Source: Thermoproteus sp.
Lineage (GTDB): Archaea > Thermoproteota > Thermoprotei > Thermoproteales > Thermoproteaceae
Assembly: GCA_049976425.1 (NCBI GenBank)
Contig: JBMFIG010000031.1
Coordinates: forward strand, 1 to 16,720
Direction of reading: 5' to 3'
Length of the DNA: 16,720 nt
The first letter of the stretch is position 1. Each line of letters begins with the position of its first letter. A program made the translations under genes and the position numbers. The notes under the pieces were generated by a model that saw only the letters and a program-made list of their open reading frames with translations, searched no databases and was not told the DNA's origin. This document shows positions 13,883 through 16,720 of the stretch, piece after piece.

Positions 13883-14272
13883 GTGGATGAGATCAAGGCC
13901 AGCATACTGGAGCTCCTCCGCAGAGAGGGGCCCCAGCCCGTCTACAAGATCGCCAAGGCGCTCGGCTTGAGCTACGGCGCCGCCCAGTGGCATATCTTCT
14001 ACCTGGAGCGGGAGGGCCTCGTGAGGACCTTCAGGAGCGGCAACAAGCGCTACGCTACGATAAGCCCCACCGCGGACGTGTTGAAGGTGGTCAAGGTCGA
14101 GGACGTGTTGAAGGACGTGGAGCTCGCCTTGAGGGCGTACGGCGTGAGGCCCGACATGACGGTCCACGAGGCTGTCCAAGTGCTCTCGGAGGAGGCGCCG
14201 CATCTGGCCGAGCTAATCCAGCAGATGGCCGAGGAGAGGTACCGGGAGGCCGAGGAGGAGCGAAAAACTTAA
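13883..14272 (+). CDS. Winged-HTH transcriptional regulator
   Basis: ILELLRREGP..VYKIAKALGLSYGAAQWHIFYLEREGLV. TTTAAAT box at 13858-13864. Confidence 0.85.
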   Translation: MDEIKASILELLRREGPQPVYKIAKALGLSYGAAQWHIFYLEREGLVRTFRSGNKRYATISPTADVLKVVKVEDVLKDVELALRAYGVRPDMTVHEAVQVLSEEAPHLAELIQQMAEERYREAEEERKT

Positions 14273-15089: not shown

Positions 15090-15139
15090 CTTATATCCTT
15101 CGACAACACACATGGGTGTGAGTAACACACATAGGTGCG
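15090..15139 (+). promoter_or_regulatory. TATA box plus two tandem palindromic operator-like repeats
   Basis: CTTATAT at 15090-15096; AACACACATGGGTGTG (15105-15120) and AACACACATAGGTGCG (15124-15139). Confidence 0.55.
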
Positions 15140-15796
15140 TGTCGGGGCTCTTCAGCCCGATCCCCAAGGAGAGGAGGAGCGAGCTCTTCGATAGGGAGGA
15201 GCTGGCGGCGTTGACGCGCCACGTCTCGGGCGGCGCGCCTCTGGTCTTGTGCCTCGGCGTCAGGAGGGTCGGCAAGACGTCTGTCGTAAGGATCTTCCTC
15301 GACGAGCGCGATGCCCCCCATACGACAGGGCCAGAGATGAGGTGCGCGTGGAGAGGTTCTCCTTGGAGAGGAGTATCTGGCGGCTGGCTTCGCCGAGGCG
15401 GGGATCAAGGTCGGCGAGGAGGAGCTGGAGAGGGCCGTGAAGATCTTCGACGGGATTCCGGGGTGGCTGGCCCTCTACGGATACGCCGCATGTAGGGGAC
15501 AACGAGGCGCGCTCGACGCTTCGCTGGAGGAGGCCGTCCGGACGGCCCTGGGCGAGATCAGACACATAGCGTCTGCCTCCGAGCTCTACGCACACGTCCT
15601 CAGAGCGGTCTCCATGGGCCACGCCAGGCGGAGCGCTGTGAAGAGGGCCGTGAAGATCTGGACGGGCCGGCATATATACGACGAGACGCTACAGAGGATC
15701 TTGAACAAGCTGACGTCCATGGGCATTTTGGCCAAGGAGGGGGAGGAGTACCGCTTCCTCGACCCGATCTACAGAAGAGCGGCCCAGAGGCTCTAA
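15139..15796 (+). pseudogene. Archaeal ATPase (ATPase_2 + wHTH) with an internal deletion and frameshifts
   Basis: Frame A: MSGLFSPIPKERRSELFDRE..GVRRVGKTS. Frame B: YDRARDEVRVERFSLERSI. Frame C: EYLAAGFAEAG..DGIPGWL..YRFLDPIY. The Walker B region is absent. Confidence 0.85.
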
Positions 15797-16470
15797 CGGC
15801 CGGCCAGAGGCCTAGCCAGCTCGAGTATCTTGGCGTAGTGGTCCTTGGCCTTGACGGCGGCGCTGGCCAGGAGAACGCCCCTAGTGCCGAGCCTCAACGC
15901 CGCCTCGACGTCCTCCCCTGACTCTATCCCCGCCCCCGTGATCACGGCGACGTCGGGGAAATGCCTCTTGACTAGCTCGACGGTCTCGACGACAGTCTCC
16001 GGCTTGTACTTGGAGACGGCTCTCCCCGTCCCTATGAGCTCGGGCGGCTCGACCGCCACCGCGTGAGGCCCCAGGGCGGCCGCGGCGAGGCTCGTCTTGG
16101 GATCAGGCGCGCAGACGACCACGTCGAGCCCCGCCGACCTGGCCCTCGCCACGAGCCTCGCCAAGTCGTTAAGCCTCAAGGGGGCCTCGCTGTGGTTCAA
16201 TATAATGCCCGACGCGCCCGCCTCCTTCACGTTGTCCACAGCCACGTGGGCCGTGTAGGCCCCCGGGGACTCCACGTCGGCGCCTTGGGCGTAGACAGGT
16301 ATGCCCACCGACTGGGCCACGAGGGCGAGCTCCAGATGGCTCGGGGCCACCGCCACGTTGACGCCGAGCTCCTTGGACACCCTCTCAGCGGCCTTGGCTA
16401 TATCGACTGCCCTACGCCCTGCCGCCTCGCCGTACGCCTTGAAGTTTATTATCAAGATCGGCAACTTCAT
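15793..16470 (-). CDS. tpiA: Triosephosphate isomerase, archaeal type
   Basis: 225 aa with [37 protein letters not shown] box at ~16491-16498. Confidence 0.97.
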
Positions 16471-16555
16471 GCACTAGTGGAACTCCACCCGATTTAAACT
16501 TACCCCCGCAGTGTGTGTGGACCAGATAACACTTATGGCTTGTGGTGTGAAGAGG

Positions 16556-16695
16556 AGCCGCGGCTCCGGCCGCCGGCGCCGGTTTGGCCGACGGCCCCGG
16601 GCGGGTTGCCCCGTCCGAGGCCGCCGGTTTATCCCCGCGTCGCCTCCGCGGTTGGGCCGCGGAGGCTTAGGCCGGGGGCGGTCGAAACCGCGGCT
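16556..16695 (-). ncRNA. Candidate structured non-coding RNA of unknown family (~140 nt)
   Basis: 19-bp closing stem, 10-bp perfect hairpin, 18-bp hairpin with a GCAA loop, A-rich linkers, and ATAAATA at 16720-16714. Confidence 0.6.
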
Positions 16696-16720
16696 GTATC
16701 TCTGATGTCCCAGTATTTAT

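Follow-up and report, generated by a model that had tools for sequence, protein, structure and literature searches.

The stretch of DNA analysed here, referred to as the window, is 16,720 nt long and represents the entire contig C31 of the 96-contig genome G000 of a Thermoproteus species. Towards its end, the minus strand carries the tpiA open reading frame with its TATA box and, further upstream, an element (16695-16546) that is very probably a real, selected gene for a structured RNA. Because the window is the whole contig, it stops within the promoter of the RNA gene, at ATAAATA. The syntenic copy in the related genome G007 is 96% identical to the window copy and supplies the DNA past the window end. 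The coordinates of the helices (Table 1) have been obtained by mapping the family alignment onto the window.

Table 1. Positions of the RNA gene, its predicted structural elements and tpiA in the window
Feature	Position	Strand	Details
tpiA open reading frame	15793-16470	-	from the ORF list
tpiA TATA box, TTTAAAT	16492-16498	-	28 nt before the ATG at 16470; outside the RNA gene
TATA box of the RNA gene, ATAAATA	16714-16720	-	contig ends here; rest of the promoter lies beyond the window
Full match of covariance model R1	16546-16698	-	cmsearch, 143.3 bits, E 4.5e-30, model positions 1-154
RNA body	~16695 to ~16556	-	followed by the pyrimidine-rich tail
P1, 5' strand (AGCCGCGGUUUCGACCG)	16679-16695	-	pairs with 16556-16572; 11 of 17 P1 pairs changed on both sides in the family
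P2a, 5' strand, CCCC	16674-16677	-	pairs with GGGG 16633-16636; 99.1% of cells pair; 1 of 4 pairs with a double change
Unpaired conserved strand GGCCUAA, P2a/P2 internal loop	16667-16673	-	alignment A2
P2 hairpin, GCCUCCGCGG-CCCAA-CCGCGGAGGC	16642-16666	-	9 of 10 pairs changed on both sides
P2a 3' strand with A-rich J2/3 (AUAAA), GGGGAUAAA	16628-16636	-	near-invariant as GGGGAUAA in the A2 conservation line
P3 hairpin, 13 bp + A-C + 4 bp, loop GCAA	16588-16627	-	7 of 17 pairs changed on both sides
P3 wobble partners, A16614 opposite C16601	16601-16614	-	alignment columns 135/150
J3/4 (CCAAA) with palindrome CCGGCGCCGG	16573-16587	-	palindrome itself 16582-16573; core CGGCGCCG near-invariant
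P1, 3' strand	16556-16572	-	partner of 16679-16695, 17 pairs
Pyrimidine-rich tail (CCUCUUCACA)	16546-16555	-	ten aligned columns, 90% pyrimidine on average, minimum 60% (29 sequences)

The stability of the segment 16540-16720 has been evaluated with RNAfold. The minus strand folds at -112.4 kcal/mol (z -7.14), and none of 200 dinucleotide shuffles is equally stable, while the plus strand folds at -109.7 kcal/mol (z -4.40). High G+C content alone already favours stable folds. The first-pass annotation, in which three helices had been folded by hand, preferred the minus strand; all three are present there, and the preference agrees with these z-scores and with the pairing in the family. Among 1479 paired cells from 29 distinct sequences, 147 are G-U and 26 are A-C, and this large excess of G-U identifies the minus strand as the transcribed one. 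The promoter and the pyrimidine tail, which are one-sided, fix the same strand. The reverse strands of the family homologues score merely 31-54 bits with the covariance model. An AUG is present in just 4 of the 29 family sequences, so the RNA is not coding.

The conservation of the pairing has been assessed in alignments of two kinds. A1 is a plain, structure-blind MAFFT alignment of 14 copies and the source of the covariance model R1, while A2, which contains 39 hits with 29 distinct sequences, has, like a further alignment A3, been fitted to the model and leans towards it. RNAalifold applied to A1 gives 51 pairs, 16 of which show compensatory changes. In A2, 97.5% of 1472 cells are standard pairs and 29 of the 51 pairs have changed on both sides, counts that are not probabilities because A2 leans to the model and the sequences are kin. 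None of 500 column shuffles of A2 attains any of five measures, and sliding the partners by 1-3 columns lowers the pairing to 37-54%. The structure-blind A1 gives the same picture. The compensatory changes on which the first-pass annotation had made its RNA depend are abundant in both alignments. Within G000, the window copy and its paralogue on contig C58 differ at 17 of the 51 pairs, eight of them on both sides and nine on one side; in the window copy itself, 50 of the 51 modelled pairs are standard and one is A-C. Because the aligned sequences are closely related and come from just two genera, the covariation counts do not represent independent events.

The modelled fold is a four-way junction composed of P1, a P2a-P2 arm with an internal loop, P3 and a very short P4 or palindrome, connected by A-rich linkers. 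Helices P1, P2 and P3 of the first-pass annotation are all retained in this model, but its three-helix architecture is replaced. P2a (4 bp) and the palindrome CCGGCGCCGG are two elements that it had missed. P1 had been drawn with 19 positions; 17 of these pair, the innermost two being parts of other helices. In the alignment mapping, one unpaired C lies between P1 and P2a on the 5' side. P2 (16666-16657 with 16651-16642) is the perfect 10-bp helix with a CCCAA loop that had been described, and P3 (16627-16610 with 16605-16588) has the 18 positions, the single A-C and, in the window, the GCAA loop ascribed to it. The mapping also recovers the A-rich linkers, namely AUAAA in J2/3, CCAAA in J3/4 and CUAA inside GGCCUAA, and AAACCGGCG does occur twice.

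The near-invariant blocks in A2 are CCGCC, GGGGAUAA, GGACGGG...CCCGCC and AAAUCGGCGCCGACGG. GGCCUAA(G) is the conserved 5' strand of the P2a/P2 internal loop, and the opposite strand, GACGC (16637-16641), varies among relatives. The tip of P2 is variable, since the 189-nt forms of G012 and G023 carry an insertion in this arm. GGACGGG/CCCGCC forms the near-invariant apex of P3, and the loop that it closes differs between the genera, with GCAA in genus g1 and CCUC, UCAC, AACC and others in g3. The GNRA loop noted earlier is thus present in the window but is not a feature of the family. At P3 columns 135/150, the 29 distinct sequences have A-C in 25 cases, G-U in three and A-U in one. A protonated A-C is isosteric with G-U, and the pattern would be the one expected of a pair held in wobble geometry. 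J3/4 reads NAAA in the family. The palindrome that follows could form either a 3-bp hairpin (P4) with the loop GCGC or a self-complementary pairing site. Most copies have U-A as its outer pair, and those linked to tpiA have C-G; of the distinct 3'-segment variants listed for metagenome copies, one has U-G at this place and two have C-A. A comparison of all columns of A2 with one another for extra covarying pairs was uninformative, as the invariant G and C columns dominated it.

Of the 33 upstream regions taken from homologues, 32 contain a TATA-like heptamer that starts 22-24 nt ahead of model position 1. This corresponds to 26-28 nt before the first base of P1, the usual archaeal spacing, and the start of the RNA has therefore been placed at P1. 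ATAAATA in the window occupies this conserved position, in agreement with the earlier suggestion that the RNA has its own promoter. The TATA element sits within the string ACTGTT(A/T)TAAA in 22 of the 33 regions. About 8-10 nt further upstream of it, an AT-rich imperfect palindrome of the approximate form ATAATAC-N4-GTATTAT is found in both genera and in the paralogues. In the G007 syntenic copy, the promoter is TTCTTATAAATACTGG and the palindrome upstream of it is AGTAATACTTAAGTATTAT. This palindrome is a putative binding site for a regulator. No regulon has been found for it in G000, where a scan for TAATAC-N4-GTATTA with up to two substitutions returned 34 scattered sites and missed the C58 copy, and a scan for [AC]CTGTT[AT]TAA[AT] returned three sites, the C58 copy being the sole family member among them. 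Also, no ACTGTT(A/T)TAAA box is present upstream of the four RNase P RNA genes compared. At the other end of the gene, the pyrimidine-rich run that had been noticed after the last paired base is conserved across the family, and CCUCUUCACA is likely a termination tract. We infer from the conservation of the promoter that the RNA is expressed.

Homologues have been searched at several depths. BLAST finds matches in 12 of 41 related genomes, and a second copy in G000 at C58:508-662 (BLAST 509-647) is 86% identical over 139 nt. With G000 excluded, the covariance model R1 matches 25 of 29 genomes of the same family (8 of 8 in g1, 16 of 18 in g3 and 0 of 2 in g2), so that the search in relatives called for by the first-pass annotation reveals a conserved family. 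On the other hand, R1 has no match in 91 genomes that represent 14 further families of the class. When 185,579 species, each represented by a single genome, were scanned for an exact pattern, ten stretches were returned, and in every case the title names Thermoproteus, Pyrobaculum or uncultured Thermoproteaceae. The corresponding metagenome scan returned 105 stretches; 80 have been examined as loci, of which 46 have a forward model match of 76-160 bits, and the remaining 34 are chance pattern matches. As far as searched, the RNA family appears to be confined to two genera of Thermoproteaceae, which named records give as Thermoproteus and Pyrobaculum. A viral origin has been rejected, as blastn gives no match in the phage and virus records and IMG/VR yields no pattern match. 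The sequencing runs listed for 15700-16720 of the window are one hot-spring metagenome run (X1) and a second one of the same study (X2) with next to no matches; both are guessed to be DNA, and no RNA run is among them.

The copy number is low. Among the 25 matching genomes, 15 have a single copy and seven have two full-length copies, while two have one copy and a diverged 143-nt paralogue (L064, L065). The remaining genome, G004, has just two short forms, 102 and 111 nt long, that lack P2. Many dispersed copies, which the first-pass annotation had regarded as the mark of a REP/MITE-like DNA element, are seen neither in G000, with two, nor in its relatives, with one or two of full length. The RNA gene has been duplicated repeatedly. 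In a tree of 29 sequences with modest support (6 of 26 inner branches starred), the duplications are mostly lineage-specific, G005b and G044b being exceptions, and the tpiA copies are nested among the g1 sequences, from which a long branch (0.28) separates them. The 5' ends had suggested two ancient paralogue types, an idea that has been dropped in view of this topology. Several assemblies are broken at the RNA gene (the window, L126, L141, L088 and L125), likely because two copies share long identical stretches.

The copy next to tpiA is a lineage-specific paralogue in one sub-lineage, and the commoner copy lies elsewhere, in G000 at C58:508-662. The tpiA-linked arrangement recurs in G007 and on three metagenome contigs; the distance from the end of the RNA to the start of tpiA is 133 nt on L127 and L108, and on L086 the gap is ~775 nt. 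The tpiA upstream regions of G002, G003, G004 and G016 have no RNA; they are unrelated to that of G007, and as a result the insertion boundaries and target duplications of the tpiA copy are unreadable. Elsewhere the neighbours of the RNA vary and include a 4Fe-4S protein, an MBL-fold hydrolase, an amino-acid permease, a cyclase, a GHMP kinase, an FtsX-type permease and ketopantoate reductase. Since the flanking genes differ between genomes without a common theme, the RNA is considered independent of its neighbours. A local role in the tpiA sub-lineage is possible, because the paralogue keeps its place before tpiA there.

The RNA represents a new family against Rfam 15. At gathering scores, the 4227 models give no match in the whole window and none in 12 homologous loci. 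At permissive thresholds, only chance-level matches are found in the window, such as mir-3960, whose 24.4 bits fall short of its gathering score (73), and nothing is found at the RNA in seven homologous loci. The proposed comparison with known families has accordingly turned up none, and the earlier statement that tRNA, 5S, RNase P and C/D motifs are lacking holds. ARAGORN identifies no tRNA or tmRNA gene in 16300-16720. The 5S rRNA resembles the RNA in its ~120-150 nt, its multi-helix junction closed by the two ends and its own promoter, but the RF00001 model has no match in the window and a 5S gene is found elsewhere in five of five genomes. A C/D box sRNA has been rejected, as the C box RUGAUGA is found in none of 29 sequences, CUGA in two and both together in none, and a canonical H/ACA sRNA has been rejected with ACA within the last 14 nt in two of 29. 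An atypical H/ACA-like class of ~60-70 nt is known from Pyrobaculum. In A2, inspected by eye, neither the P2 internal loop nor any terminal loop shows the GA/GA arrangement of a K-turn.

RNase P RNA of type T (RF02357) shares with the RNA the same organisms, a high G+C content, stability, a similar size (208 model positions) and closure by a terminal helix. It has been rejected, because it gives no match even at E up to 10 and lies at other loci. RF02357 has a match over the cut-off in 36 of 41 genomes, and every listed place differs from those of the RNA; in G007, for example, it is at C1:1810769-1810975 and the RNA is at 962537 and 36120. G000 gave no RF02357 hit, and the exclusion there rests on the Rfam scans of the window. 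An RNase P S-domain supplied in trans has also been rejected. The RNA does not resemble any RNase P model even locally and has not been found in families f2 and f3; most genomes of these families have an RF02357 hit (over the cut-off in 13 of 14 f2 genomes, with weak matches below it in f3).

Archaeal SRP RNA is another structured RNA of these organisms, and the standard models fail to find it in g1. The GCAA loop of P3 in the window fits GNAR. The RF01857 model gives partial matches (model positions 99-273) at other loci in g3 and none in g1. The Thermoproteus SRP RNA is described as a permuted, circular molecule of 309 nt that adjoins ppdK (Plagens et al. 2015, PMC4731332). In G000, G002 and G007, the PPDK_N genes lie either on a different contig from the RNA or at a distance of hundreds of kb, and this form has been rejected too. 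Unlike the permuted SRP RNA, the RNA family does not conserve a GNAR-like loop, and in A2 its P1 has no bulge-helix-bulge motif, for which reason the RNA is expected to be a linear molecule. Pyrobac-1 (RF01722; Weinberg et al. 2010, PMC2864571) is an orphan RNA of Pyrobaculum that is clade-restricted and thought to act in trans. It is similar to the present RNA in being a clade-restricted orphan without a known function. Its model (60 positions) matches three of three g3 genomes (G016, G014, G010) and neither of two g1 genomes (G000, G007), always at other loci than the RNA.

The explanation that we favour, and regard as probable on the whole, takes 16695-16546 as a gene in its own right that specifies a stable and extensively folded RNA of ~145 nt, whose two ends are closed by P1. 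Taken separately, the functional part, a trans-acting structural or scaffolding RNA bound by protein and distinct from an antisense regulator, is put forward tentatively, at somewhat less than even chances. The proposal is based on the observation that conservation peaks in paired regions and at the junction, namely in the P3 apex, CCGCC, GGGGAUAA and the palindrome, as would be expected of sequence-specific protein or tertiary contacts. Base pairing by itself would not demand such conservation, and antisense regulators do not display it. The gene neighbourhood gives no hint of a partner, and for this reason the case for protein binding is made from the conservation pattern. A factor binding the upstream palindrome would probably control the transcription of the RNA.

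The same features have been considered under other explanations. The RNA may be a base-pairing sRNA, in which unpaired GGCCUAAG, GGGGAUAA and the C/U-rich tail would pair with RNAs in trans and the helices would provide heat stability. Conserved single-stranded segments do exist in A2, the promoter looks regulated, and antisense and other small RNAs have been reported from Pyrobaculum (PMC3388794). However, conservation is strongest inside the helices and the junction and lower in the loops, and 51 pairs in ~145 nt are far beyond the structure that known antisense sRNAs need, which makes this explanation unlikely, at about one chance in a handful. We give a lower chance, of roughly one in eight, to a ligand-binding or catalytic RNA, that is, an aptamer or ribozyme acting in trans, possibly as a homodimer joined by the palindrome. 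The multi-helix junction with its A-rich linkers and invariant nucleotides, the conserved A-C/G-U wobble position in P3 and the near-invariant 8-nt palindrome, whose outer pair covaries as U-A, U-G and C-G, would suit such an RNA. Against it, no Rfam ribozyme or riboswitch model resembles the element. For most copies, RNAcofold favours a dimer by -19.9 kcal/mol at 37 C and by -9.7 kcal/mol at 85 C, with the palindrome mislocated in many rows, but such a gain is the generic outcome for any GC palindrome and does not constitute evidence. The palindromes of the G004 short variants, CCAGCUGG and CCGGCUGG, have been dropped as support for the dimer. Each of these variants folds as one long hairpin, in which the 5' GGCC takes the segment in question as its partner, so a palindrome is not needed there.

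Two further explanations place the function of the element in the DNA or in cis. The position of the window copy, which shares the strand of tpiA and precedes its TATA box by 48 nt, and its counterparts in G007, L127, L108 and L086 could indicate a leader or a transcriptional-interference element for tpiA. This is very improbable and a riboswitch or other cis leader has been rejected, because the commoner copy lies beside tpiA in no genome examined, the neighbours are inconsistent between genomes, four tpiA upstream regions are without the RNA, and just one sub-lineage's paralogue is tied to tpiA. The RNA has its own TATA box and tail, and tpiA has a TATA box of its own, so that the earlier view of an independent ncRNA rather than a tpiA leader is upheld. 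Even less credible, to the point of being nearly negligible, is a DNA-level repeat of the REP/MITE type, or a protein-binding DNA site, that makes no RNA. It would account for the richness in inverted repeats, the two occurrences in G000 and the contigs that often end at the element. Against it, full copies number just one or two in each genome and the virus collections yielded none, G-U strongly exceeds A-C so that just one strand folds, the element is flanked by a promoter at constant spacing before its start and by the pyrimidine tail after its end, and the compensatory changes preserve pairing instead of sequence.

No description of the RNA has been found in the full texts searched, and an earlier sighting without a name is possible. 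PMC3388794 sequenced RNAs of 16-70 nt only, and its consulted sections make no mention of the present RNA. Likewise, the RNA is not described in the consulted passages of PMC4731332, PMC2864571 and PMC3037878, and those of a preprint on the P. calidifontis ribosome mention no extra RNA. The absence from both Rfam 15 and the literature searched explains why annotation pipelines miss the RNA, which is present in nearly every genome of two genera. Few RNAs that combine a complex fold with an unknown function are known in Archaea. In bacteria, raiA, OLE, ROOL and GOLLD are conserved, intricately folded RNAs with genes of their own, unknown biochemical roles and mostly larger sizes, and some of them are reported to form homo-oligomers. 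The present RNA differs from them in being archaeal and in having no sequence or model similarity to them in the Rfam scans. We conjecture that it may oligomerise through its palindrome.

Thermoproteaceae have an unusually reduced RNA repertoire. Their RNA biology is also notable for a minimal RNase P RNA (RF02357; PMC3579882), a permuted, circular SRP RNA (PMC4731332) and atypical guide RNAs (PMC3388794). A SelB-like factor is reported to be absent from Pyrobaculum and Thermoproteus. There is a small chance, in our estimate, that the RNA defines a new archaeal class: a regulated four-way-junction RNA that would assemble into a symmetric homodimer via the palindrome and act as a catalytic or ligand-sensing machine of RNA alone or of RNA and protein, or supply a lost function in trans. 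If so, the RNA would provide a function that has been lost elsewhere in this repertoire, or it would be part of a machine specific to Thermoproteaceae. The 51 pairs, the invariant junction and the dedicated promoter, kept through repeated duplication, are the signature of strong selection for a specific three-dimensional job. The family is narrow, with two genera, and the alignment and the model suffice to seed a new RNA family. Also, the gene is present in several cultured species, which makes Northern blots, pull-downs and structure work feasible.

Contigs frequently end at or within the RNA gene, as at window position 16720 and in the homologous loci L126 (1-148), L141 (1-131), L088 (9875-10027) and L125 (7544-7696). 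These breaks have likely arisen because two paralogous copies of the gene share long identical stretches.

Shorter and more divergent relatives of the RNA have been identified in related genomes (Table). Both variants from the genome G004 lack GGGGAUAA in addition to the P2 arm. The 102-nt variant and the two loci of the 143-nt paralogue type retain the TATA box and an AT-rich palindrome upstream, while the 111-nt variant is preceded only by a TATA-like box, with an unusual spacing of 19 nt.

Table. Reduced and diverged relatives of the RNA, and protein-coding features of the window
Feature	Location	Genome or strand	Remarks
Reduced RNA variant, 102 nt	L066:301-402	G004	Hairpin-like, without P2
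Reduced RNA variant, 111 nt	L067:201-311	G004	Hairpin-like, without P2
Diverged 143-nt paralogue type	L064:201-343 and L065:201-344	G001, G006	No mismatch in the folded P3 arm
129-aa ORF (MDEIKASILELLRREGPQPVYKIAKALGLSYGAAQWHIFYLEREGLV...)	window 13883-14272	plus strand	Putative small winged-helix regulator
Possibly broken P-loop protein gene	window 15112-15796	plus strand	Adjoins tpiA; compared with G007

The RNase P RNA type T model (RF02357) found no match in the whole genome carrying the window (G000, 99.4% complete) or in G005, though all other genomes of the genus have a match. Probably, the gene is missing from these two assemblies or has been dropped by the candidate filter of the search. 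Separate from the main rnpB locus, G023 has a second match above the cut-off (C1:567368-567547, ~180 nt, 84.8 bits), and weak matches of ~133 nt (27-28 bits) occur in G012 (C9:153146-153278) and G023 (C1:80199-80331). These additional matches may represent further RNase P-like RNAs or decayed ones. The archaeal SRP RNA model (RF01857) had no match in G000, G002 and G007 of the genus g1, and in two genomes of the genus g3 only model positions 99-273 were matched. This pattern is consistent with the permuted SRP RNA reported for Thermoproteus (PMC4731332).

By sequence comparison, the gene beside tpiA looks like a damaged version of a ~370-aa P-loop protein that is whole in G007. Relative to G007, the reading frame shifts after ...GKTSVVRIFLDERDAP, ~165 codons are absent, and the remainder is spread over ORFs at 15112-15495, 15249-15440 and 15437-15796. 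Either a pseudogene or an error in the assembly could account for this arrangement. The 129-aa ORF, for its part, looks like a small winged-helix regulator.
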